Assembly: GCA_964244245.1 (NCBI GenBank)
Contig: CAXTHW010000010.1
Span: 52,764-116,763 of the forward strand
Length of the DNA: 64,000 nucleotides
Reading direction: 5' to 3'
From: an uncultured Rubrivivax sp.
Lineage (GTDB): Bacteria > Pseudomonadota > Gammaproteobacteria > Burkholderiales > Burkholderiaceae_C
In this document: positions 14,152 through 25,919 of the stretch, piece after piece
How positions within the stretch are numbered: the first letter of the stretch is position 1
Layout of the letters: each line of letters opens with the position of its first letter
Position numbers and translations under genes: made by a program
The notes under the pieces: model-generated
Databases searched by the model: none
Seen by the model: the letters and a program-made list of their open reading frames with translations, nothing else
What the model was told of the DNA's origin: nothing

Positions 14152-14619
14152 ATGTCCACCACCACCATCGAAACGCCCTTGATCCGCGTCGGTGAGGAAT
14201 TCCGCGCGCAGGTGCGCTACACGCGCGAGCAGATCATCCAGTTCGCGCGCCTCACCGGCGACAGCAACCCGCTGCACCATGACCGCCAGGCGGCCGAGCG
14301 TGCCAGCTTCGGCGAGCTGATCGCCAGCGGCCAGCAGACCGCGTCGCAGATGATGGGCCTCGTCGCATCGCACTTCTCGCGCACCCACGACGGCGTGCAG
14401 CGCGAGATGCTGTGCCTGAACTTCAACTTCAACTTCAAGGCGCCGGTGTTCGCCGAGCAGGACATCCACATCCACTGGCGCGTCTCGGAGGTGGAGCCCA
14501 ACAACCGCCGCGGCGGCTTCATCGGCCATGTCGATGGCGCCGCGACGGTGGCCGGCCGCGCCTGCGTGGTGGCGCGCGGCACGCTGCTGGTGCGGCGCAC
14601 GGCGGTGCGGCTGGCATGA
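14152..14619 (+). CDS. MaoC-family hot-dog dehydratase
   Basis: FARLTGDSNPLH, FKAPVF. Confidence 0.85.
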   Translation: MSTTTIETPLIRVGEEFRAQVRYTREQIIQFARLTGDSNPLHHDRQAAERASFGELIASGQQTASQMMGLVASHFSRTHDGVQREMLCLNFNFNFKAPVFAEQDIHIHWRVSEVEPNNRRGGFIGHVDGAATVAGRACVVARGTLLVRRTAVRLA

Positions 14620-14632
14620 CCGGGGCCGGCCC

Positions 14633-15772
14633 ATGCTGCTGAGCGAAGACCACCGCGCGGTGCAGGACGCCGTGCGCAGCTATGTGCAGGACTGCATCGC
14701 ACCGCACGCTGCCGCCTGGGACAAGAGCCACGCCTTCCCTGCCGCCGCCTTGCGTGGCCTGGCCGCGCTGGGCTGCTACGGCGTGGCGGTGCCGCAGGAA
14801 TGGGGCGGCGCCGGGCTGGACTACCTGGCACTGGCCGTCATCCTCGAAGAAGTGGCCGCCGGCGACGGCGCCACCAGCACCGTGGTCAGCGTCAACAACT
14901 GCCCGGTCTGCTCCATCCTGATGGCCTATGGCAATGCCGACCAGAAAGAGCGCTTCCTGAAAGCCCTGGCGCGCGGCGCGATGCTGGGCGCCTTCTGCCT
15001 GACCGAGCCGCATGTGGGCTCGGAGGCCGGCGGGCTGAGGACGACGGCTGTCCGCGACGGTGACGACTACCTGCTGAACGGCGTCAAGCAGTTCATCACC
15101 AGCGGCAAGAACGGCGACGTCGCCATCGTGATGGCAGTGACGGACAAGGCCGCCGGCAAGAAAGGCATCAGCGCCTTCATCGTGCCCACCAGCACGCCCG
15201 GCTACGAGGTGGCCCGCATCGAGGACAAGCTGGGCCAGCATGCCAGCGACACGGCGCAGATCCGCTTCGAGCAATGCCGCGTGCCGGCCGCCAACCTGCT
15301 GGGCGAAGAAGGCATGGGGCTGAAGATCGCGCTGTCGGGCCTGGAAGGCGGGCGCATCGGCATCGCGTCGCAGGCCGTCGGCATGGCACGCGCGGCCTTC
15401 GACGCCGCGCTGGCCTACAGCCGTGACCGCACCAGCTTCGGCCAGCCCATCTTCAACCACCAGGCGGTGCAGTTCAAGCTGGCCGACATGGCCACGCAGA
15501 TCGAGGCCGCGCGGCAGCTCATCTGGCACGCCGCCAGCCTGAAGGACGCCGGCCTGCCCTGCCTGAAACAGGCCGCGATGGCCAAGCTCTTCGCCAGCGA
15601 AATGGCAGAGCGCGTCTGCTCCGACGCGATCCAGGTGCACGGCGGCTACGGCTACGTGAGCGACTTCCCGGTCGAGCGCATCTACCGCGACGTGCGGGTC
15701 TGCCAGATCTACGAAGGCACGTCGGAAGTGCAGAAGATCCTCATCGGCCGGGCGTTGGCACAGGGCGCCTAG
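14633..15772 (+). CDS. Short/branched-chain acyl-CoA dehydrogenase
   Basis: GAFCLTEPHVGSEA, KQFITSG, GGRIGIA, YRDVRVCQIYEGTSE. Confidence 0.95.
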   Translation: MLLSEDHRAVQDAVRSYVQDCIAPHAAAWDKSHAFPAAALRGLAALGCYGVAVPQEWGGAGLDYLALAVILEEVAAGDGATSTVVSVNNCPVCSILMAYGNADQKERFLKALARGAMLGAFCLTEPHVGSEAGGLRTTAVRDGDDYLLNGVKQFITSGKNGDVAIVMAVTDKAAGKKGISAFIVPTSTPGYEVARIEDKLGQHASDTAQIRFEQCRVPAANLLGEEGMGLKIALSGLEGGRIGIASQAVGMARAAFDAALAYSRDRTSFGQPIFNHQAVQFKLADMATQIEAARQLIWHAASLKDAGLPCLKQAAMAKLFASEMAERVCSDAIQVHGGYGYVSDFPVERIYRDVRVCQIYEGTSEVQKILIGRALAQGA

Positions 15773-15837
15773 ACGGCGTCTGGGCGGCGCTTCGACGGCG
15801 CTTCGACGGCGGTCAGACGGCGCTCAGACCGCGATCA
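15772..15837. repeat. Six degenerate 11-bp tandem units (GACGGCGCTTC/GACGGCGCTCA-like) between convergent genes
   Basis: Units start at 15772, 15783, 15794, 15805, 15816 and 15827; TCA at 15813, 15824 and 15835. Confidence 0.85.
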
Positions 15838-16782
15838 AGAGGCGGCCAGCGCGCCGGCGACGAAGGCCACCAGCGCGCGCGCCGCTTCCGGCGCCACCGG
15901 CATGGGCAGCGTCAGCGCGAACACCGTGTCGCCTTCGACGAGGTGCAGTTGCCAGCCCGGCAGCGCATCCACCAGCCGGCCCGCGGCCACGTCGTCGGCC
16001 ACGCTGAAGTCGGGGGCGAACACGGTGCCGTTGCCCGCGCGCGCCATGCCCAGCAGCGTGGCGAGGTCGTCGCTGCTGCAGGCCGGCACCAGCTCTATGG
16101 CGCTGCGCTCGTCGGCACCGCGCCGCCACAGCATTGCCAGCCGCTCCGTCGGCTGGCCCAGCACCAGGCAGCGCGCGTCGGGCAGCGCATCCGGCCCCGC
16201 CAGCGGCATGCCCTTGCGTGGCCGCGCCCAGGCGCAGACCTTGAAGCGCAGCACCGCGCGCGCCACCCAGTCTTGCGGCGGCTGGCGGGTGATGCGAAAG
16301 GCCACGTCAACGTCCTCGCGCAGCAGGTCCACCCGGCGGTGCGTGAAGCTCAGCTCCAGCCGCAGCGCCGGGTGCACCGCCAGAAAGCGCGCCAGCAGCG
16401 GCGCCAGCACCGCCATGCCGAAGGTGGGCACCGAGGTCACGCGAAGCGTGCCGCTCAGCCCCGGGCCGCGCGCCTGCGTGCGCAGGCTGAGCCGGGCTGC
16501 GTCGGTCGCGTCGGCCACCGCGCGGGCCTTGGTGGCCAGGCGGCGGCCGGCCTCGGTGAGGCCGAGTGCCCGCGTGGTGCGGGCAAACAGCGGCTGGCCC
16601 AGCGCAGCCTCGATGCCGGCAATGCGCCGGCTGACCGCCGCGCGCGTCAGCCCCAGCCCGCGCGCGGCCTGCGCAAAGCTGCCGGCCGCGACGATGCGCG
16701 CAAACAGCTCCAGCGCGTTGGCGTCCAGCGGCACGTCGCGGCGCGCCGCCACGGTGGGGCGCTGCCGGGTCTTGGTTGTCAA
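15835..16782 (-). CDS. LysR-family transcriptional regulator
   Basis: GSFAQAARGLGLTRAAVSRRIA.LE helix-turn-helix, LFARTTR, substrate-binding domain; divergent from the hydrolase. Confidence 0.93.
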   Translation of the reverse strand: MTTKTRQRPTVAARRDVPLDANALELFARIVAAGSFAQAARGLGLTRAAVSRRIAGIEAALGQPLFARTTRALGLTEAGRRLATKARAVADATDAARLSLRTQARGPGLSGTLRVTSVPTFGMAVLAPLLARFLAVHPALRLELSFTHRRVDLLREDVDVAFRITRQPPQDWVARAVLRFKVCAWARPRKGMPLAGPDALPDARCLVLGQPTERLAMLWRRGADERSAIELVPACSSDDLATLLGMARAGNGTVFAPDFSVADDVAAGRLVDALPGWQLHLVEGDTVFALTLPMPVAPEAARALVAFVAGALAAS

Positions 16783-16852
16783 TGCAAACTCACCAATGCG
16801 TCAATCCAAGGCAGTCTAGTCAACTTGCGGGGCGAATCCTAGAGTTGCCTGC

Positions 16853-17803
16853 ATGCACAGCCGAACCGCCAGTTCCTTCGAAGCCGGGCCGCTGGCCGGC
16901 CCCGCCAAGGCGTCAACCACGCAGACCACCGTGCTGGTCGCCGCCGATGGCCGCCACCTGGCCGCCTGCTGGACGGAGCCGCCCGACGGCCAGGCGCACG
17001 CCGTCACCGTGCTCAGTTCGGCGGCCGGCGTGCCGAGCGGCTACTACCGCGGCTTCGCGCAGTGGCTGGCCGGCCGCGGCCACGCGGTGCTGCGCTACGA
17101 CTACCGCGGCATCGGCGGCTCGCGCAGTGGTGCGCCGCTGCGCCAGGAGCCGGCGACGATGCGCGACTGGGCGGTGCTGGACATGAGCGCGGCACTCGCC
17201 GCCGCCGAAGCGCGGCGCGGCGGCCGTGGCCTGCCGCTGCTGCTGCTGGGGCATTCGTTCGGCGGCAATGCGATCGGCTTCGCCCATGGCGTGGAGCGGG
17301 CCGACGCCATCCTCACCGTGGCATCGCAGCAGGGCGAGCCGCGCCTGTTCGCTGGCCGCCACCGCGTGCTGGCCGAGCTGTTCTTCCGCGCCTGGGTGCC
17401 GGCAGTCACGGCGGCGTGTGGCCGCATGCCCGGCTGGGCGCTGGGCGGCGGCGCAGAGCCGATGCCGGCCGGCGTGGCGCGCCAGTGGGCGGCCTGGGGC
17501 CTGCGCCGCGGCTGGGCCTTCGCCGACCCGGCAATGCGCCCGCAGTCGTCGTACCGCGCCATCGTGGCGCCGGTGCATCTGTGGAACGTCAGCGACGATC
17601 TCACCTACGCGCCGCCCGCCGCGGTGGACGCGCTGGCAGCGCAGTTCGCCATCGCCGCGGTCCAGCGCCACACGCTCACGCCGGCGTCGGCCGGCGTCCG
17701 GCGGCTGGGCCACTTCGGCGTCTTCCGTCGCTCACCGGGCGCGCCGGTCTGGGAGCGCCTGCTCGCGCCCATCGAAGCCGCGGTGCCCGCCTTGCGGCGC
17801 TGA
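16853..17803 (+). CDS. Predicted alpha/beta hydrolase
   Basis: YDYRGIGGS, GHSFGG nucleophile elbow, C-terminal GHFG. Confidence 0.88.
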   Translation: MHSRTASSFEAGPLAGPAKASTTQTTVLVAADGRHLAACWTEPPDGQAHAVTVLSSAAGVPSGYYRGFAQWLAGRGHAVLRYDYRGIGGSRSGAPLRQEPATMRDWAVLDMSAALAAAEARRGGRGLPLLLLGHSFGGNAIGFAHGVERADAILTVASQQGEPRLFAGRHRVLAELFFRAWVPAVTAACGRMPGWALGGGAEPMPAGVARQWAAWGLRRGWAFADPAMRPQSSYRAIVAPVHLWNVSDDLTYAPPAAVDALAAQFAIAAVQRHTLTPASAGVRRLGHFGVFRRSPGAPVWERLLAPIEAAVPALRR

Positions 17804-17852: not shown

Positions 17853-19202
17853 ATGACCGAGACCGAGGCCCGCCAGGTGCTGCTGTTGCAGGCCGTCGAG
17901 ACCGGCGCCCAGACGCCGCTGTGGACCGCCGATGACCGCGCCTGGGCCAGCCGCCTGGCGCAGCAGACGGCCGGCGGCGATGCGCCGCCCGAGCGCTTCG
18001 TCGCCCAGCGGGCCGGCCACGCCATGCAGCGTCTGCTGCCGCGCGATGCCGCTGCCCGCGACTGGCTGCAGCGCAGGCTGTGGCGCCCGGCGTGGCTGCC
18101 GGCCGCCGGCGCAGCGGCCTTCGGGCTCGGCGCGCTGGTGGACCACATCGGCAGCGCGCAGCGCGTCGATCTGCTGGCCTGGCCGGTGGGCGTGGTGATC
18201 GTCTGGAACGTCGCGGTCTATCTCGGTCTGCTGCTGCCGCGGCGCGGCGGCGGCTTGCGGCGCTGGCTGACCCGGCAACTGGCGGGCGGCGAACGCGGGC
18301 CGGCAGTGCTCTGGGCGCGCCACGCCGCGCCGCTGTCGCTGGCGCGCGCGGCCTGGCTGCTGCACGGCGCCGCCGCGATGCTGGCGCTGGGCCTCGTCGC
18401 AGGCCTCTACACGCGCGGCCTGGTGCTGGACTACCGCGCGGGCTGGCAGAGCACCTTTCTCGCCGCGCCGCTGGTGCAGGCGCTGCTGAACGCGCTGCTG
18501 GCGCCGGCCAGCGCCGTCACCGGCATCGCCGTGCCCGACGTGGCACCGCTGCGGCTGGCACCCGGGGTGGCGGCGGCCGGGCCGGCCGCGCCCTGGCTGC
18601 ACCTCTTCGCGGCGACGCTGGCGCTGGCCGTCGTGCTGCCGCGGCTGGCGCTGGCGGCCTGGGCCGGATGGCGGGCGCAGCGGCTGTCGGCGCACTTCCC
18701 GCTGGCGCTGGACGACCCCTACTTCCAGCGCCTGCGCCTTCAGCAGCAAGGCGGCCAGGCGCTCGTGCAGGTGCTGCCCTACGCGGCCGACTGCTCGGCG
18801 CAGGCGGCGCTGGGCCTGCGCGCCGTGCTGGCCGGCGTGCTGGGCGAAGGCCTTCAGTTGCAGCTTGCGCCCACCACGCCCTTCGGTGAGGCGGCCTCTG
18901 GCTCGGCAGGCACGGCAGTCACCGGCCTGCGCGTGCTGCTCTTCGACCTGGGCGCCACGCCCGAGGCCGAAGCGCAGGGCCGCTTCATTGCCGCGCTGCA
19001 AGGCCACGGGCCGCTGCTGCTGGTGGCCGACGAGGCGGCATTCCGGCGGCGCTTTGCCGGCCTGCCGGAGCGGCTGGCGCAGCGCCGCGCGGCCTGGCAG
19101 CAGTTCGCCGACGCGCAAGCCTTGCCGCTGCTGTGCTGCGACCTGGGCGGCGCAGACACCGCGGCGGCCACCGCCACGCTGCAACGGGTGCTGGCCCGAT
19201 GA
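17853..19202 (+). CDS. Membrane protein, DUF2868-like
   Basis: Several hydrophobic segments, RGLVLDYRAGWQSTFL and LPRLAL segments; ATGA overlap with the GTPase gene; family name from memory. Confidence 0.7.
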   Translation: MTETEARQVLLLQAVETGAQTPLWTADDRAWASRLAQQTAGGDAPPERFVAQRAGHAMQRLLPRDAAARDWLQRRLWRPAWLPAAGAAAFGLGALVDHIGSAQRVDLLAWPVGVVIVWNVAVYLGLLLPRRGGGLRRWLTRQLAGGERGPAVLWARHAAPLSLARAAWLLHGAAAMLALGLVAGLYTRGLVLDYRAGWQSTFLAAPLVQALLNALLAPASAVTGIAVPDVAPLRLAPGVAAAGPAAPWLHLFAATLALAVVLPRLALAAWAGWRAQRLSAHFPLALDDPYFQRLRLQQQGGQALVQVLPYAADCSAQAALGLRAVLAGVLGEGLQLQLAPTTPFGEAASGSAGTAVTGLRVLLFDLGATPEAEAQGRFIAALQGHGPLLLVADEAAFRRRFAGLPERLAQRRAAWQQFADAQALPLLCCDLGGADTAAATATLQRVLAR

Positions 19203-20683
19203 CGGCGCAGTGGAGCGGGACCAGCGCGACGACAGTGACGACAGTGACGACAGTGACGACATTGACGCTGAGCCTGGTCTCGCACACCAACGCCGGCAAG
19301 ACGACGCTGGCGCGCACGCTGCTGGGCCGCGACATCGGCGAGGTGCGCGACGCACCGCACGTCACCGAGTTCGCCGAGATGCACCCGCTGCTGCGCACGC
19401 CCGAGGGCGATGCGTTGCAGCTCTGGGACACGCCCGGCTTCGGCGACAGCCCGCGGCTGCTGCGGCTGACGCAGCGGCTGCAGTCGGCAGAGCAGCCGCT
19501 GGGTTGGCTGCTCGCCCAGGTGTGGGACCGCTGGCGTGACTGTGGGCTGTGGGCCAGCCAGCAGGCGCTGCGCCATGTGCGCGCGCACAGCGACGTGGTG
19601 CTCTACCTCGTCAATGCCAGCGAGTCGCCAGCCGCTGCCGGCTACGTGGCCGCAGAAATGGGCTTGCTGCGCTGGATGGACAAGCCGGTGGTGGTGCTGC
19701 TGAACCAGCTCGACCCGCCGCGCGCCGCGGCCGACGAAGCGGCCGACGTCGCCCAGTGGCGCACGCATCTGGCGGCTTTTGCGCAGGTGCGCGCGGTGCT
19801 GCCGCTGGACGCCTTCGCGCGCTGCTGGGTGCAGGAAGGCACGCTGCTGCGCGCCATCGACGCGGCGCTGGGCGGCAGCGCTGTCATGCAGCGGCTCGCG
19901 GCCGCGTGGGCAGCGCAACGGCTGGCCACCTTCGATGCCGCGGTGCGCGAACTGGCCGCCAGCCTCGGCCGCACGGCGGCAGCGCGCGCCGTGCTGCCCG
20001 ACGGCGGCTGGCTCGCACGCAAGCAGGATGCCGCCGACGGGCGGCAGGCGCTGGAGAAGATGCTCGATGCCGAGCTGCGCGCCAGCACCGGCCGGCTGCT
20101 GGCGCTGCACGGGCTGGCCGGCCAGGCGCAGAGCGAGATCCTCGACCGCGTGGCGGCCCAGGTGAGCTTGCGCCAGCGTGTCGGCGAAGGCCGCGCGGCG
20201 CTGGTGGGCGGGGCCATCAGCGGCGCGCTGGCGGGGCTGAAGGCCGACATCGCCACCGGCGGCCTCACGCTGGGCGGCGGCATGCTGGCCGGCGGGCTGC
20301 TGGGCGCCCTGGGCGCCGCCGGCCTGGCCCGCGGGCTGAACGTGGTGCGCGGCACCGACCGCAGCTTTGCCCACTGGAGCGCAGAGGCGCTGGCGCCGCT
20401 GGTGCAGGCCGCACTGCTGCGCTACCTGGCCGTGGCCCACTTCGGCCGTGGCCGCGGCGACTGGCAGCAAGGCGAAGCGCCCGCGCACTGGCGCGATGTC
20501 GTCAGCGCCGCACTCGCACCGCACCAGGCCGCGCTGACGGCGCTCTGGCAGGGCCGCAGCAGCAAGTTCGACAACCCAGGCGAGGCAGAGCAGCTCTCGG
20601 CGGCGCTGCTGCCGCTGCTGGCAAAGGCCACGCGCGATGCGCTGGAGCGCCTGTACCCCGGCGCCTGGCCCGCCAAGCCATGA
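19199..20683 (+). CDS. P-loop GTPase with C-terminal Gly-rich hydrophobic region, DUF3482-like
   Basis: G1 SHTNAGKT, G3 DTPG, G4-like NQLD; GGAISGALAG..GGLTLGGGMLAGGLLGALG. Confidence 0.8.
   Translation: MTAQWSGTSATTVTTVTTVTTLTLSLVSHTNAGKTTLARTLLGRDIGEVRDAPHVTEFAEMHPLLRTPEGDALQLWDTPGFGDSPRLLRLTQRLQSAEQPLGWLLAQVWDRWRDCGLWASQQALRHVRAHSDVVLYLVNASESPAAAGYVAAEMGLLRWMDKPVVVLLNQLDPPRAAADEAADVAQWRTHLAAFAQVRAVLPLDAFARCWVQEGTLLRAIDAALGGSAVMQRLAAAWAAQRLATFDAAVRELAASLGRTAAARAVLPDGGWLARKQDAADGRQALEKMLDAELRASTGRLLALHGLAGQAQSEILDRVAAQVSLRQRVGEGRAALVGGAISGALAGLKADIATGGLTLGGGMLAGGLLGALGAAGLARGLNVVRGTDRSFAHWSAEALAPLVQAALLRYLAVAHFGRGRGDWQQGEAPAHWRDVVSAALAPHQAALTALWQGRSSKFDNPGEAEQLSAALLPLLAKATRDALERLYPGAWPAKP
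19231..19266 (+). repeat. 9-bp microsatellite (GACAGTGAC)x3 plus one variant, encoding TTV repeats
   Basis: Exact copies at 19231, 19240 and 19249; GACATTGAC at 19258. Confidence 0.9.
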
Positions 20684-20731: not shown

Positions 20732-21310
20732 ATGGACCTTGCCCACCACCTGCGCATCCAGGCGCGCGCCAACCGCCTGGCCAACCACCGGCTGCACGGC
20801 GCGATGGCAGCGCTGCCGCCGGCCGACTTCCACGCGCCGCGCACCGGCTTCTTCCCCAGCCTGGCAGCCACGCTCGACCATGTGTTGATGGTCGATCAGT
20901 ACTACATCGGCGCCCTGCTCGGCGAAGCCGGGCTCGACGGCCATTGGGCCCGCTACACCGGCAGCGCCACGCTCGCTGGTCTGGCAACGCGCCAGCAGGC
21001 CAGCGACGAGCGGCTGATCGCCTTCTGCGACGCGCTCGATGCCGCCGGCTGTGGGCGCGTGGTGGCAATGCCGCGCGGCGCCGGCCGCGTGCAGCACGAC
21101 CTGGCGGCCCATGTGCTGGCCCACCTGTTCATGCACCAGACGCACCACCGCGGCCAGGCCCACGCGATGCTGTCCGCCACCGCCGTGGCGCCGCCGCAGC
21201 TCGACGAGTTCCTGATGCCCAGCGAAGCGCATTTCCGCGTTGCCGAGATGGCGGCGCTGGGCTGGCAGGAGGCTGCGGTGTACGGCCTGCCGGGCGACAC
21301 CCGACCCTAG
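20732..21310 (+). CDS. DinB/YfiT-family protein
   Basis: FFPSLAATLDH, HLFMHQTHHRGQ. Confidence 0.9.
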   Translation: MDLAHHLRIQARANRLANHRLHGAMAALPPADFHAPRTGFFPSLAATLDHVLMVDQYYIGALLGEAGLDGHWARYTGSATLAGLATRQQASDERLIAFCDALDAAGCGRVVAMPRGAGRVQHDLAAHVLAHLFMHQTHHRGQAHAMLSATAVAPPQLDEFLMPSEAHFRVAEMAALGWQEAAVYGLPGDTRP

Positions 21311-21336
21311 AATTGACGTTGACGTAAACGTCAACC
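21308..21336 (+). promoter_or_regulatory. -10-like TAGAAT plus LiuR-type palindrome upstream of liuB
   Basis: TAGAAT at 21308-21313; TTGACGT-AA-ACGTCAA at 21319-21334. Confidence 0.8.
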
Positions 21337-21360
21337 AAACCCGCAGGCGCAGGAGCCCCG

Positions 21361-22971
21361 ATGCCCGTTCTCACGTCCAAGATCAACCCGCGCTCCGAGG
21401 ACTTCAAGGCCAATGCGCTGCTGATGCGGCAGCGGGTGGACGACCTCAACACCCGCCTGGCCGGCATCGCCGAAGGCGGCGGCGAGGCGGCGCGCGCCAA
21501 GCACACCGCGCGCGGCAAGCTGCTGCCGCGCGAGCGGGTGGAAATGCTGCTGGACCCGGACACGCCCTTCCTCGAAATCGGCGCGATCGCGGCGCTGGAC
21601 ATGTACGACAACGCCGCGCCCGGCGCGGGGCTGATCGCCGGCATCGGCCGTGTCAGCGGCGTCGAGTGTTTGATCGTCTGCAACGACGCCACCGTCAAGG
21701 GCGGCACCTACTACCCGATGACGGTGAAGAAGCATCTGCGGGCGCAAGAGATCGCGCAGCAGAACCGCCTGCCGTGCATCTACCTCGTGGACAGCGGCGG
21801 CGCCAACCTGCCCAACCAGGACGACGTCTTCCCCGACCGCGAGCACTTCGGCCGCATCTTCTACAACCAGGCCAACATGAGCGCGCTGGGCATCCCGCAG
21901 CTCGCGGTGGTGATGGGCTCGTGCACGGCAGGCGGCGCCTACATGCCGGCGATGAGCGACGAGACCATCATCGTGCGCAACCAGGGCACCATCTTCCTGG
22001 CCGGCCCGCCGCTGGTGAAGGCCGCCATCGGTGAAGTGGTCAGCGCCGAAGACCTGGGCGGCGGCGACGTGCACACCCGGCTGTCCGGCGTGGCCGACCA
22101 CCTGGCCGAGAACGACCTGCACGCACTGGCCATCGCGCGCGCCAGCGTCGCCAACTTCAACTGGCGCAAGCCAGAGCAACTGCAACTCCAGCCGCCGCGC
22201 GCGCCGCTGTTCGACGCTGCCGAACTGCACGGCGTGATCCCGTCGGACGCGCGCAAGCCCTTCGACGTGCGCGAGATCATCGCCCGCCTGGTGGATGGCT
22301 CGGAGTTCGACGAGTTCAAGGCGCGTTACGGCGCCACGCTCGTCACCGGCTTCGCGCATATCGAAGGCATGCCGGTGGGCATCATCGCGAACAACGGCGT
22401 GCTGTTCTCCGAAAGCTCGATGAAGGCCGCGCACTTCATCGAGTTGTGCTGCCAGCGGCGCATTCCGCTGGTCTTCTTGCAGAACATCACCGGCTTCATG
22501 GTCGGCCGCAAATACGAGGCAGAAGGCATCGCCAAGCATGGCGCGAAGATGGTCACCGCCGTGGCCACCGCCACGGTGCCCAAGTTCACGGTGATCATCG
22601 GCGGCAGCTTCGGTGCCGGCAACTACGGCATGTGCGGCCGGGCTTACAGCCCGCGCTTGCTGTGGATGTGGCCGAACGCGCGCATCAGCGTGATGGGCGG
22701 CGAGCAGGCCGCGGCGGTGCTGGCCACCGTCAAGCGCGATGGCATCGAGAAGAAGGGCGGCCAGTGGAGCGCCGAGCAGGAATCGGCGTTCAAGCAGCCG
22801 ATCCTGGAGCAGTTCGAGCACCAGGCGCACCCGTACTACAGCAGCGCGCGGCTGTGGGACGACGGCGTGATCGACCCGGCCGACACCCGCCGCGTGCTGG
22901 CGCTGGGCTTGAGCGCCAGTCTGAACGCGCCGATTCCGGACACCCCGCGCTTCGGCATTTTCCGGATGTAG
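21361..22971 (+). CDS. liuB: 3-methylcrotonyl-CoA carboxylase beta (carboxyltransferase) subunit
   Basis: [41 protein letters not shown]. Confidence 0.97.
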
Positions 22972-22972
22972 T

Positions 22973-23012
22973 GCATAATGTGTGCCGTGCTTTGACAGAA
23001 TACACATCATGC
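22973..23012. promoter_or_regulatory. Inverted repeat, likely vapBC autoregulatory operator
   Basis: GCATAATGTGT (22973-22983) / ACACATCATGC (23002-23012), 10 of 11 complementary; overlaps -10-like CATAAT. Confidence 0.55.
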
Positions 23013-23290
23013 GCACCAATATCGACATCGACGATGACTTGATGGCCAACGCCATGAAGGCCGGGCCGTACAAGACCAAGAAAGACGCGGTCGAGGCCGG
23101 CCTCAAGCTGCTGGCCCGGCAGGCCGCCTACCGCGAGATTCTCAAGTGGCGCGGCAAGCTGAACTGGGAAGGCGACGACAGCATCGACTGGACGGTGCCC
23201 GCGCCGCCGCCCACCACGGGCAGCGGCGTCAGCACCGCCGTGCTGGCGCAAGAGCGGTCGCCTGGCGGGAAGCGCCGTGCTGGTCGTTGA
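23009..23290 (+). CDS. vapB: VapB-family antitoxin
   Basis: MRTNIDIDDDLM..AM....KTKKDAVE.GL..L; overlaps the PIN gene. Confidence 0.9.
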   Translation: MRTNIDIDDDLMANAMKAGPYKTKKDAVEAGLKLLARQAAYREILKWRGKLNWEGDDSIDWTVPAPPPTTGSGVSTAVLAQERSPGGKRRAGR

Positions 23291-23678
23291 CTCCAGCGTC
23301 TGGATCGACTTCTTTGCGCGCAACGCCCACCCCGCCAGCGACCTGCTGGACAGCCTGCTCGACCATGGCGAGGTGCGCATCGTCGTGCCCGACCTGGTGC
23401 TGTTCGAGGTGCTGCGCGGCTTTCGCCATGAGCGTGACCACCGGCAGGCGCGGCTGCTGATGGAAAGCCTGAGCATCGAAGCCACGGGCGGCGCGGCGCT
23501 TGCGCTGACCGGCGCGCAGCACTACCGCAGCCTGCGCGCGGCCGGTGTCACGGTGCGCAGCGGCATCGACGTGCTGATCGCCAGCTTCTGCATCGAGAAC
23601 GACTACGCACTGCTGCACCGCGACCGCGACTTCGACGCCTTCGAAGCGCAGCGCGGCCTGCGCATCTGGCGCAACTGA
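23277..23678 (+). CDS. vapC: VapC PIN-domain toxin
   Basis: VDSSVWID, LFEVLRG, IDVLIA, LLHRDRDF acidic tetrad. Confidence 0.93.
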   Translation: MLVVDSSVWIDFFARNAHPASDLLDSLLDHGEVRIVVPDLVLFEVLRGFRHERDHRQARLLMESLSIEATGGAALALTGAQHYRSLRAAGVTVRSGIDVLIASFCIENDYALLHRDRDFDAFEAQRGLRIWRN

Positions 23679-23692
23679 AAGGCCGACGCGCC

Positions 23693-24826
23693 ATGGACAA
23701 CGTCTATCTGACCGCCGACCACGCCCTGCTGCAGGACCAGGTGGCGCGCTTCCTCGCGCGCGAGGTGGAGCCCCATGCAGCCACCTGGGAAGAGCAGGGC
23801 ATGGTGCCGCGCGCGGTGCTGCGCAAGATGGGCGCGGCCGGCTTGCTGGGCCTCGTCTATGCGCCCGAGTACGGCGGCGCCGGCGCCGATGCGCTGACCA
23901 ACCTGGCTTTCGCAGACGCTTTGAGCCAGAGCACCTTCGGCGGCTTCATCATCACGGTGCTGGTGCACACCGACATGGCGTCGCCGCACCTGCACCACGC
24001 CGGCACGCCGGCGCAACAGGCGCGCTGGATGCCCGGCATCACCAGCGGCGAAACCATCACCGCGGTGGCCATCACCGAGCCCGGCGCCGGCTCCGACGTC
24101 GCCGGCCTGCGCAGCAGCGCCGTGCTGGATGGCAGCACCTGGGTGCTCAACGGCAGCAAGCTCTTCATCACCAACGGCGTCCATGCCGATCTGTATTTCG
24201 TCGCCGCCCGCACCGGCAGCGCACGGCATGCGATTTCGATCTTCGCGGTCGAGAAAGGCACGCCGGGCTTCACGGTCGGCCGCTCGCTCGACAAGACCGG
24301 TTGGCGCTGCTCCGACACCGCCGAACTGCACTTCGACAACGTGCGCTTGCCGGCCGGCCACCTGCTGGGCGACGAAGGCAAGGGCTTCTACGCGGTGATG
24401 AAGAACTTCCAGACCGAGCGCATCGCACTCGGCGCCATGGCGGTGGGCCACTGCACGCAGGCGCTGCGGCTGGCGCTGGACCATGTGCGCACGCGCCAAG
24501 CCTTCGGCGGCACCTTGTGGGACAAGCAGGCCGTGCGCCAGAAACTCGCGATGCTGGACGCCAGGACCCGCGCCGCCCGCGCCTACCTCTACCACTGCGC
24601 CTGGCGCGTGACTCAGGGGCACGACGTGGTGCAGGACGTCTCGCTGCTGAAGGCGCTGACCGGCGAACTGGTCAACGAAGTCGTCCAGGGCTGCCAGCAG
24701 TTGCATGGCGGCATGGGCTTCATGCACGGCACGCCGGTCGAGCGGCTGTGGCGTGATGCGCGCGTGCTGGCCATCGGTGGCGGCGCCACCGAGGTGATGC
24801 TCGACGAAGCGGCCAAGCGGTACTGA
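23693..24826 (+). CDS. Acyl-CoA dehydrogenase (long-chain/AtuD-like subfamily)
   Basis: VHTDMASPHL, AITEPGAGSD, RDARVLAIGGGATE. Confidence 0.92.
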   Translation: MDNVYLTADHALLQDQVARFLAREVEPHAATWEEQGMVPRAVLRKMGAAGLLGLVYAPEYGGAGADALTNLAFADALSQSTFGGFIITVLVHTDMASPHLHHAGTPAQQARWMPGITSGETITAVAITEPGAGSDVAGLRSSAVLDGSTWVLNGSKLFITNGVHADLYFVAARTGSARHAISIFAVEKGTPGFTVGRSLDKTGWRCSDTAELHFDNVRLPAGHLLGDEGKGFYAVMKNFQTERIALGAMAVGHCTQALRLALDHVRTRQAFGGTLWDKQAVRQKLAMLDARTRAARAYLYHCAWRVTQGHDVVQDVSLLKALTGELVNEVVQGCQQLHGGMGFMHGTPVERLWRDARVLAIGGGATEVMLDEAAKRY

Positions 24827-24849
24827 GCCGCGACTGAACGGGCGGCTGA
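24823..24849 (+). repeat. CTGA triplet repeat with 11/12-bp spacing
   Basis: CTGA at 24823, 24834 and 24846 in GACTGAACG/GGCTGAACG-like units. Confidence 0.6.
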
Positions 24850-24860
24850 ACGGCTTCACC

Positions 24861-25919
24861 ATGGCGCAGCACATCGACATCCGGCCGCACGTCGGCCCCC
24901 AAATCCGCCCACTCGCAGCACGCGACTCCTTCGACGCCATCACGCGCCTGCTGCACGCGGCCTACGCGCCGCTGGCACAGGCCGGCATGAACTTCACCGC
25001 CGCGACGCAGACGGCCGAAGACACGGCCCGCCGCGCTGCGGAGGGGCAGTGCTTGGTTGCAGAAACCGAAGACGGCATCGTCGGCACCGTCACCGTCTGC
25101 GGCCCCTATGCCGACGGTGAAGCGCCCTGGGCCGAGTCCGTCCCCTGGTTCCGCGACCGCGACACCGCGCACTTCCACCAGTTCGCGGTGCACCCGGCCG
25201 CGCAGCGCCAGGGCCTGGGCCGGCGGTTGATCGCCGCCTGCGAGCACTGGGCGCTGCAACGCGGCTACCGCCGCATGGCGCTGGACACGGCCGAGCCGGC
25301 AACCGCACTGCGTGCGCTCTACAAGAGCGTGGGCTATGCCGAGGTGGGCCGCGTGCACTGGGCGGGCAAGACCTATGGCAGCGTGATCCTGCAAAAGGCG
25401 CTGGACAGGTCTCCGCTGCGCGAGCACCTGCGCACGCTGGCACGCTACAACGTCTGGGCCAGCACGGCGCTTTGCGCCCATCTCGATGCGCTGCCCGAGG
25501 CCGACTACAGGCGCGACGCCGGGCTCTTCTTCAACAGCGTGCATGGCACGCTGAACCACCTGCTGGTGGCCGAGCATGCGCTGTGGTTTCGCCGCTTCGC
25601 CGAGGGCGTTTCACCGTCGGTGGCGCTCGACGACGAGATCGAGCCCGACCGTGCGCGGCTGCGCCAGCGCCTGCTGAGCGGCGCGCTGGCCTGGCTGCCG
25701 CTGCTGGAGCTGTGGCCCGAGCAGCGGCTGGAAGGCACGCTGGAGTACCAGCGTCTGGCCGGCCAGCGCGTGCGGCTGCCTTTTGCAGCCACGTTGGCGC
25801 ATGTGTTCAACCACGGCACGCACCACCGCGGCCAGATCAGCGCCGCGATCACCGCGATGGGCCACGCGAGCCCCGCACTCGACATGGTGCTGATGCTGCA
25901 ACAAGACCATCCGTCATGA
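24861..25919 (+). CDS. GNAT acetyltransferase-DinB fusion protein
   Basis: N-half FAVHPAAQRQGLGRRL and LYKSVGY; C-half SVHGTLNHLLV and HVFNHGTHHRGQ. Confidence 0.88.
   Translation: MAQHIDIRPHVGPQIRPLAARDSFDAITRLLHAAYAPLAQAGMNFTAATQTAEDTARRAAEGQCLVAETEDGIVGTVTVCGPYADGEAPWAESVPWFRDRDTAHFHQFAVHPAAQRQGLGRRLIAACEHWALQRGYRRMALDTAEPATALRALYKSVGYAEVGRVHWAGKTYGSVILQKALDRSPLREHLRTLARYNVWASTALCAHLDALPEADYRRDAGLFFNSVHGTLNHLLVAEHALWFRRFAEGVSPSVALDDEIEPDRARLRQRLLSGALAWLPLLELWPEQRLEGTLEYQRLAGQRVRLPFAATLAHVFNHGTHHRGQISAAITAMGHASPALDMVLMLQQDHPS

Follow-up and report, generated by a model that had tools for sequence, protein, structure and literature searches.

What do two overlapping genes of an uncultured Rubrivivax sp., one for a multi-pass membrane protein and one for a P-loop protein, make together? 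The pair lies in a 64,000-nucleotide stretch of contig CAXTHW010000010.1 (hereafter the window, whose positions are used throughout). A sequence-only reading of the window had presented the two genes as an uncharacterised pair and as a candidate dynamin-like system for membrane remodelling or phage defence. The list of open reading frames (ORFs) and the sequence itself confirm that both ORFs lie where this reading placed them and that an ATGA overlap links the two:

17853-19202, plus strand: ORF1, DUF2868-family inner-membrane protein of 449 amino acids (aa); PF11067, 38.8 bits; AlphaFold2 (AF2) model with a mean predicted local distance difference test score (pLDDT) of 87.7
19199-20683, plus strand: ORF2, P-loop nucleoside triphosphatase (NTPase) with MMR_HSR1 and DUF3482 domains, 494 aa; PF01926, 35.2 bits; PF11981, 39.5 bits; AF2 model with pLDDT 80.2 and a predicted template modelling score (pTM) of 0.80
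19199-19202, plus strand: ATGA start/stop overlap in the context ...cccgATGAcgg..., the ORF2 ATG (19199-19201) lying over the ORF1 TGA (19200-19202)

The first ATG of ORF2 is at 19199 and its stop codon at 20681-20683. ORF2 has >7000 homologues, with E values down to 1e-218; its closest named relatives are Rubrivivax gelatinosus proteins at ~72% identity. ORF1 has 848 homologues. These numbers, together with scores above the Pfam gathering thresholds, indicate that both ORFs are real genes. By the same scores, the pair is already present in databases, catalogued in Pfam as DUF2868 plus DUF3482. ORF1 exceeds the cut-off for DUF2868 (26.8 bits) over profile positions 19-160 of 315, and ORF2 exceeds those for MMR_HSR1 (21.9 bits) and DUF3482 (29.2 bits). 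In NCBIfam, ORF2 gave sub-threshold matches to Era, Der and HflX only, and when a profile of the family was run against PDB sequences, the matches were weak (Der, NUG1, GIMAP7 and septin; best E = 1.8e-3). When the ORF2 stalk, the ORF2 Gly-rich segment and the N- and C-terminal domains of ORF1 were each searched in isolation against Pfam (E <= 5), nothing besides DUF3482 was found.

The window pair resembles other pairs of DUF2868 with MMR_HSR1/DUF3482 in gene order, strand, coupling and domain layout, with both Pfam assignments above threshold; NCBI names such proteins 'DUF2868 domain-containing protein' and 'GTPase/DUF3482 domain-containing protein'. It differs in belonging to a large betaproteobacterial subfamily with SHTNxGKT at the G1 position, where gamma-type members have GHTNVGKTS or GHPNKGKSS. 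This subfamily is further set apart by a G4-like NQxG (NQLD in the window) and by an AHFGRGRG motif. The window pair scores only ~39 bits on the Pfam models. Judged from these comparisons, the window pair is an ordinary member of a widespread, catalogued and unstudied DUF2868/DUF3482 module. In the literature library searched, only four papers mention DUF2868 or DUF3482, and none reports a function. An adjacent DUF2868/DUF3482 pair of Pseudomonas aeruginosa is given as hypothetical proteins HP15/HP14 (PMC12864544), and a DUF2868 protein was detected in Thiodictyon by proteomics (PMC6413534).

The proposal that the two genes form a functional unit is borne out by their co-occurrence, their adjacency, the conserved overlap and natural fusions. 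Of 80 loci, each taken from another species, 76 have the DUF2868 gene directly upstream of the DUF3482 gene, and three of the remaining four are truncated by the end of the contig. A 4-nt start/stop overlap is present in 53 of the 76 (ATGA 45, GTGA 6, TTGA 2). The sequence-only reading had made its case depend on co-occurrence, and the genes do co-occur: among 300 class-wide genomes, 18 carry both genes, one carries DUF2868 alone and none carries DUF3482 alone. The assembly of the single DUF2868-only genome is fragmented, and its match breaks off where a contig ends. Same-strand adjacency was found in 16 of 17 genomes, with the two genes of the seventeenth split between contigs. A third conserved gene was sought in 15 diverse 17-kb loci; none was found, and other real genes recur in at most three of these loci. 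Detection depended on the profile used: a hidden Markov model (HMM) from a narrow ORF1 alignment and simple motif regular expressions missed the gamma-type partners, which Pfam PF11067 detected.

Single-chain fusions of DUF2868, MMR_HSR1 and DUF3482 occur in the representative clusters P0130, P0131, P0136, P0151, P0209, P0216 and P0149. Two further examples lie on contigs of metagenome-assembled genomes (MAGs). In the first (L062, 4513-7518), a full DUF2868 is joined to the NTPase via a Gly/Ser/Val-rich linker. In the second (L018, 4990-7479), the N-domain and four transmembrane (TM) helices are followed by the G domain, into which TM4 runs straight, without the DUF2868 C-domain. These single-chain forms set both the topology and the 1:1 relationship of the two partners. 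Inserted DNA separates the genes in 2 of the 76 loci, by ~3.4 kb with opposite-strand ORFs in one (L008, 2600-6000) and by ~1.8 kb including a HigA-like antitoxin gene (PF21716) in the other (L041, 4240-6000); the pair can therefore be separated without loss. A 1109-aa ORF between the pair genes of L008 was considered as a third component and rejected, as it has no Pfam match and the composition of an antisense artefact. Overall, ORF1 and ORF2 almost certainly work as one membrane complex.

The nucleotide-binding motifs of the pair lie in the G domain of ORF2.

19259-19867, plus strand: ORF2 G domain, aa 21-223, from alignments and Foldseek matches to Era (7c1o, E = 6.8e-6), Der and EngB

The motifs reported in the sequence-only reading are correct as described: G1 is SHTNAGKT (19280-19303) and the G4-like motif is NQLD (19703-19714, aa 169-172). 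G2 is T56, and G3 is DTPGF from 19427, with DTPG at aa 77-80. In the AF2 model, the strands follow a Ras-like order, and aa 84-130 form a helical insert. In two alignments of close homologues (16 and 54 sequences), H29, T30, N31, G33, K34, T35, T56, D77, T78, P79, G80, N169 and Q170 are invariant, and S28 is nearly so. Across the 150 best representative clusters (111 scored), 105 have SHTNxGKT at G1, 4 have AHTN and 2 have GHTN. Most representative clusters have NQxG at the G4 position, Asp172 of the window protein being an exception. Gamma-type members have the canonical first Gly at G1 and LNF[IVT]A or INxxx at the G4 position. The three subfamilies sampled share H[TP]NxGK[ST], which is HTNxGKT in the clade of the window protein, and N31, T56, D77xxG80 and F81 are conserved. 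None of these DUF3482 subfamilies has NKxD, only the Asn being shared by all. The alignments thus indicate that the atypical G1 and G4 are family traits and not signs of decay.

Because NKxD is absent from every subfamily, the nucleotide used may not be GTP. On the motifs, 'GTPase' is an annotation rather than a finding. The earlier description of ORF2 as a TRAFAC-like GTPase with atypical G1 and G4 therefore holds for the TRAFAC-class P-loop protein and for its motifs, but guanine specificity is unproven. The cation-dependent, hydrophobic-substituted group that includes Era, Der, EngB, MnmE and FeoB is recognised by an Asn in the P-loop and by a hydrophobic residue that follows DxxG and replaces the catalytic Gln. 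ORF2 has this signature (N31, and DTPG followed by Phe) as well as the G2 Thr (T56), and the best Foldseek and HMM matches of its G domain come from this group. In Foldseek searches of the PDB, Era (E = 6.8e-6), Der and EngB match best, over ~200 columns, and GIMAP7 (3zjc) and Toc34 (1h65/3bb1) follow near E = 1e-3. ORF2 differs from the Era group in having Ser in place of the first P-loop Gly, in lacking NKxD and in having an obligate membrane partner. Its 45-aa helical insert between G3 and strand β4 is a further difference, as is the lack of a KH, other RNA-binding or permease domain.

The N-terminal extension of ORF2 contains a short repeat:

19228-19267, plus strand: 9-bp tandem repeat GACGACAGT, 4.4 copies (Tandem Repeats Finder score 73), encoding TTVTTVTTVTT in the N-terminal extension before strand β1

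The GACGACAGT tract is in-frame and slippage-prone, and lies in a probably unstructured region. Most homologues lack it; a Rubrivivax MAG protein (P0117) has the related TTVTTVGTV.

ORF1 was described earlier as a multi-pass membrane protein with a soluble C-terminal domain, and hydropathy and the AF2 model agree with this, giving four hydrophobic helices followed by an α/β domain:

17853-18077, plus strand: ORF1 N-terminal cytoplasmic helical domain, aa 1-75, with helices at aa 3-17, 26-40, 46-64 and 66-73 (AF2)
18093-18668, plus strand: ORF1 membrane region, with TM helices at ~aa 81-96, 108-127, 159-192 and 246-272 (hydropathy, AF2 helices)
18750-19199, plus strand: ORF1 C-terminal cytoplasmic α/β domain, aa 300-449, predicted to have a G-domain-like fold without a P-loop

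The loop at aa 128-160 contains 7 Lys/Arg and 1 Asp/Glu, and the segment at aa 189-245 contains 2 Lys/Arg. By the positive-inside rule, this bias puts both termini of ORF1 on the cytoplasmic side and the conserved aa 193-245 loop, which carries a GWQSTF motif, outside; the natural fusions agree with the N-in/C-in topology. Across all subfamilies, 19 or more of the 21 sequences compared agree at twelve ORF1 columns (D28, L107, W198, T201, P228, W248, P263, R264, L294, G345, P370 and W415), and D28 is kept in 20 of them. An invariant Arg in a 'PDRG' loop, proposed for DUF2868, is not conserved in the clade of the window, which reads TPE[AD]E at the aligned position; R377 follows four residues later. 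W198, T201, P228, W248, P263 and R264 map to the outer ends of TM3 and TM4, their connecting loop and the inner end of TM4. The best-conserved residues of the 4-TM bundle are found at the outward-facing loop.

In the AF2 model, the elements of the C-terminal domain of ORF1 follow the order β1-α1-β2-β3-α2-β4-α3-β5-α4, with β2 and β3 forming a hairpin, and this modelled order fits a G domain minus the last β-α unit. Compact, high-probability Foldseek matches were Rheb (1xtr), RhebL1, Rab, YsxC, EF-Tu, eIF5B and RagA/C. The match to Rheb 1xtr has a probability of 1.00 and TMt of 0.54, but E = 0.09. We compared the domain with the ORF2 G domain by hhalign, using profiles of three subfamilies, and obtained a score of 28.3 (P = 8.4e-4). 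None of 120 shuffled controls reached this score (60 block-shuffled, mean 15.3, standard deviation 2.5, maximum 24.4; 60 column-shuffled, mean 10.4). The alignment pairs VLLFDLGATPE of ORF1 with VVLYLVNASESP of ORF2 and PLLLVADE with PVVVLLNQLD, and it brings conserved Pro and Trp residues into register (P370 and W415 of ORF1 with P144 and W187 of ORF2). No GK[ST] follows strand β1 of the ORF1 domain. In L018-type fusions, β1 of the G domain sits exactly at the place of β1 of the C-domain, after the LD.PYF motif. From profiles and model together, the ORF1 C-domain is likely a P-loop-less, dead paralogue of the ORF2 G domain.

Members of the Toc34/Toc159 and GIMAP/AIG1 families work by bringing one G domain together with a related one. 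These membrane-anchored, dimerising GTPases of the septin-like group resemble ORF2 in having a small G domain tied to a membrane anchor via helices. The window pair shows no sequence-level membership in either family, and its partner domain on ORF1 has no P-loop. Its putative anchor also differs, being a Gly-zipper segment in ORF2 and a single C-terminal TM helix in those families. The parts of ORF2 beyond the G domain are as follows:

19880-20161, plus strand: ORF2 helical stalk, aa 228-321, with helices at aa 228-261, 273-303 and 311-321 (AF2 model)
20195-20332, plus strand: ORF2 Gly-zipper hydrophobic segment, aa 333-378, with GxxxG-type motifs, kept in all three subfamilies
20381-20653, plus strand: ORF2 C-terminal helices, aa 395-485, with the clade motif AHFGRGRG (20438-20458)

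In the AF2 model, a β hairpin (aa 380-393) leads into three C-terminal helices. Asp350 lies at the turn of the Gly-rich segment and is conserved in all subfamilies. The layout given in the sequence-only reading, with a long stalk and a Gly-rich hydrophobic hairpin, is retained as a succession of G domain, helices, Gly-rich segment and helices; insertion of the Gly-rich 'hairpin' into the bilayer is a step that we infer.

Taken together, these features suggest a heterodimeric membrane nucleotide switch in which an Era-type NTPase pairs with the dead G-like domain of its 4-TM partner; we give this model an even chance of being correct. ORF1 would be a 4-TM inner-membrane protein with both ends in the cytoplasm and a P-loop-less G-domain relative as its C-domain. 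ORF2 would be an Era-type, cation-dependent, hydrophobic-substituted P-loop NTPase continued by the stalk, the Gly-zipper segment and the C-terminal helices. Translational coupling may supply the two proteins in equal amounts. The live G domain of ORF2 would contact the dead domain of ORF1 at the cytoplasmic face, and nucleotide binding and hydrolysis would shift the stalk and the Gly-zipper against the 4-TM bundle. The module would then act as a nucleotide-driven switch that alters a membrane-embedded or outward-facing part, and not as a scission or fusion polymer.

Several observations weigh against this switch. Foldseek gave no match to the ORF1 C-domain at E <= 1e-3, all compact matches having E > 0.06. 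The hhalign probability for the C-domain and the ORF2 G domain is only 24%, and hhalign with narrow-clade alignments gave no signal. L018-type fusions lack the C-domain, so this domain is dispensable. In ORF2, the Gly-rich segment is weakly hydrophobic, its 19-residue Kyte-Doolittle mean never reaching 1.6, and the corresponding stretch of the model (aa 324-376) has low confidence (pLDDT 31-43). Finally, full-length Foldseek alignments of ORF2 were obtained only with dynamin-family proteins, which leaves a remodelling role open.

The last point leads to the alternative that survives best, a convergent machine similar to dynamin, mitofusin or atlastin. Here, dimers of the ORF2 G domain, formed across membranes or along one and anchored by the hairpin and ORF1, would act on the inner membrane under stress by tethering, fusion or repair. 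The order of G domain, helical bundle, hydrophobic hairpin and helices in ORF2 is that of mitofusin, BDLP and atlastin. The sequence-only reading had called for a Foldseek comparison with dynamin-like proteins, and its outcome is divided. ORF2 aligns at near-full length with chain 5oxf_C of the Campylobacter dynamin pair (probability 0.98, E = 4.6e-4), and its top match in the Foldseek viral library is a giant-virus dynamin-family GTPase (E = 1e-4). No bacteriophage proteins were among the matches in that library. These alignments, however, have low template modelling scores (0.24/0.20 and 0.28/0.21, respectively), and their root mean square deviations are 28-38 Å (38 Å for 5oxf_C). Weak PADLOC matches to LeoA/LeoBC and sub-threshold Dynamin_N and Septin matches in a fused homologue (P0149) also speak for a dynamin-like machine.

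At the domain level, this resemblance is not sustained. The window protein has no Dynamin_N match (PF00350) at E <= 0.01, and its G domain is an Era/Der/EngB-like one of ~200 aa, compared with ~300 aa in dynamins. Nor does ORF2 have the dynamin G4 motif [TN]KxD, the position reading NQLD in the window and NQxG, NFxA or INxxx in the family. A pTM of 0.80 points to a compact model and not to an extended one, and the most conserved part of ORF1 faces outwards and is not at the cytoplasmic leaflet. Bacterial dynamin pairs such as Cj-DLP1/2 of Campylobacter (5oxf), LeoABC, IniA/IniC and DynA share with the window pair the two-gene unit and, in ORF2, the G domain, the helices and a hydrophobic, paddle-like segment, in addition to the only full-length Foldseek alignments. 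They differ in that the ORF2 G domain is small and Era-like, and in that its partner is a polytopic membrane protein and not a second dynamin. By motif and domain, the pair falls outside the dynamins, and its predicted layout recalls dynamin-like proteins. The dynamin-like analogy of the sequence-only reading therefore does not hold as a family assignment, and we consider a dynamin-like machine unlikely.

A second alternative is a nucleotide-gated channel or transporter similar to FeoB, in which the 4-TM bundle and the glycine-zipper helices form a pore or carrier that is gated by the Era-type domain. In FeoB, a G domain of the same class (Asn in the P-loop, DxxG followed by a hydrophobic residue) and a helical domain are joined to a membrane permease. 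Glycine zippers line several channels. Asp350, which all subfamilies keep at the Gly-rich turn, and the conserved polar residues at the outer end of both TM3 and TM4 of ORF1 would suit such a role. By contrast, a pore unit built from four TM helices and a weakly hydrophobic hairpin would be small, and the intramembrane polar residues N119 and H171 are only clade-specific. Pfam and NCBIfam scans gave no transporter family, and no substrate-linked neighbours are conserved in 15 loci. A transporter or channel is thus improbable, more so than a dynamin-like machine.

The distribution of the pair bears on a third alternative, an anti-phage or abortive-infection system comparable to the LeoABC-type dynamin defence candidates. 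Full-length copies are present in ~23 of 201 genomes of the order (~11%) and in 18 of 300 of the class (~6%), a patchy pattern that would suit a defence system, as would a VapBC pair 2.3 kb downstream. PADLOC (PADLOC-DB 2.0) matched ORF2 to LeoA (E = 2.9e-4) and LeoBC (E = 3.6e-4), but these are 18-bit matches confined to the P-loop region (G1-G3), and ORF1 has no PADLOC match. A tblastn search of 72,556 plasmids and 50,697 phages found no copy of the pair. In its own genome, the pair is single-copy and chromosomal, and in the clade it is syntenic between the isovaleryl-CoA dehydrogenase and methylcrotonyl-CoA carboxylase genes. The suggested check of defence-island neighbourhoods found no conserved defence gene beside the pair in 15 diverse loci, and the neighbours in the related loci are metabolic. 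A phage-defence role, which the sequence-only reading had also raised, is accordingly very improbable. Equally improbable is a membrane-tethered ribosome-assembly or translation factor with ORF1 merely as its anchor: in structure and sequence, the G domain matches Era, Der, EngB and RbgA-bound particles best, but the protein has no KH or other RNA-binding domain (the remainder being DUF3482 helices and the Gly-rich segment), the pair is absent from ~90% of related genomes and so is not a core factor, and the obligate membrane partner would be left unexplained.

Two side observations concern the distribution of the family. About 10 same-order genomes (G099, G179, G049, G016, G157 and others) contain ORFs of 460-520 aa that match the G-domain part only (E = 1e-12 to 1e-17); these may represent a more distant DUF3482-like subfamily, or Der, though they are present in some genomes only. 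Outside the Pseudomonadota, the pair, ATGA overlap included, is present in Agromyces albus DSM 15934 (L078) and Agromyces sp. NPDC058484 (L080), on contigs of 45 kb and 158 kb with ~70% GC. The two loci share 86% DNA identity, and their proteins are ~60-63% identical to the nearest betaproteobacterial copies. The pair probably reached Agromyces, a monoderm genus of the Actinomycetota, by horizontal transfer, and the module would therefore need no outer membrane.

In the window, the pair lies within a leucine/isovalerate-catabolism neighbourhood (14528-15772 and 20732-25919) that includes acyl-CoA dehydrogenases:

15835-17803: LysR regulator (minus strand) and α/β hydrolase (Hydrolase_4), between the acyl-CoA dehydrogenase and the pair
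20732-21310: DinB-family gene
21361-22971: methylcrotonyl-CoA carboxylase beta subunit
22982-23678: VapBC-like pair, inside the leucine-catabolism neighbourhood
24861-25919: GNAT-DinB fusion

Among the 80 related loci, an isovaleryl-CoA-dehydrogenase-like gene is found upstream in 26 and the methylcrotonyl-CoA carboxylase beta subunit downstream in 19. This shared gene order probably reflects inheritance and not function. None of the 80 has the LysR gene or the hydrolase of the window, and the dehydrogenase often abuts DUF2868 there; the two genes look like a local, lineage-specific insertion. Scanning for promoters and terminators gave nothing informative at the 75% GC of this region.

The window locus introduces no new type of system; what it contributes is detail on the motifs, fusions and homology of a family. 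Labels of dynamin or defence are unwarranted for DUF2868/DUF3482 without experiments, and with NKxD missing family-wide, DUF3482 proteins may use a nucleotide other than GTP. The pair is a 'known unknown', with thousands of homologues, kept as a unit, sometimes fused, and present in at least one major pathogen. As a tentative view, which we hold to be possible rather than probable, DUF2868/DUF3482 may represent an unrecognised class of bacterial membrane machine, a heterodimer or, in the fused forms, a single chain, in which a live Era-derived NTPase and its dead paralogue are both kept in the membrane. Such a machine, having lost NKxD in every subfamily, may use ATP or any NTP instead of GTP and would signal the nucleotide state of the cytoplasmic side to the conserved outward loop.

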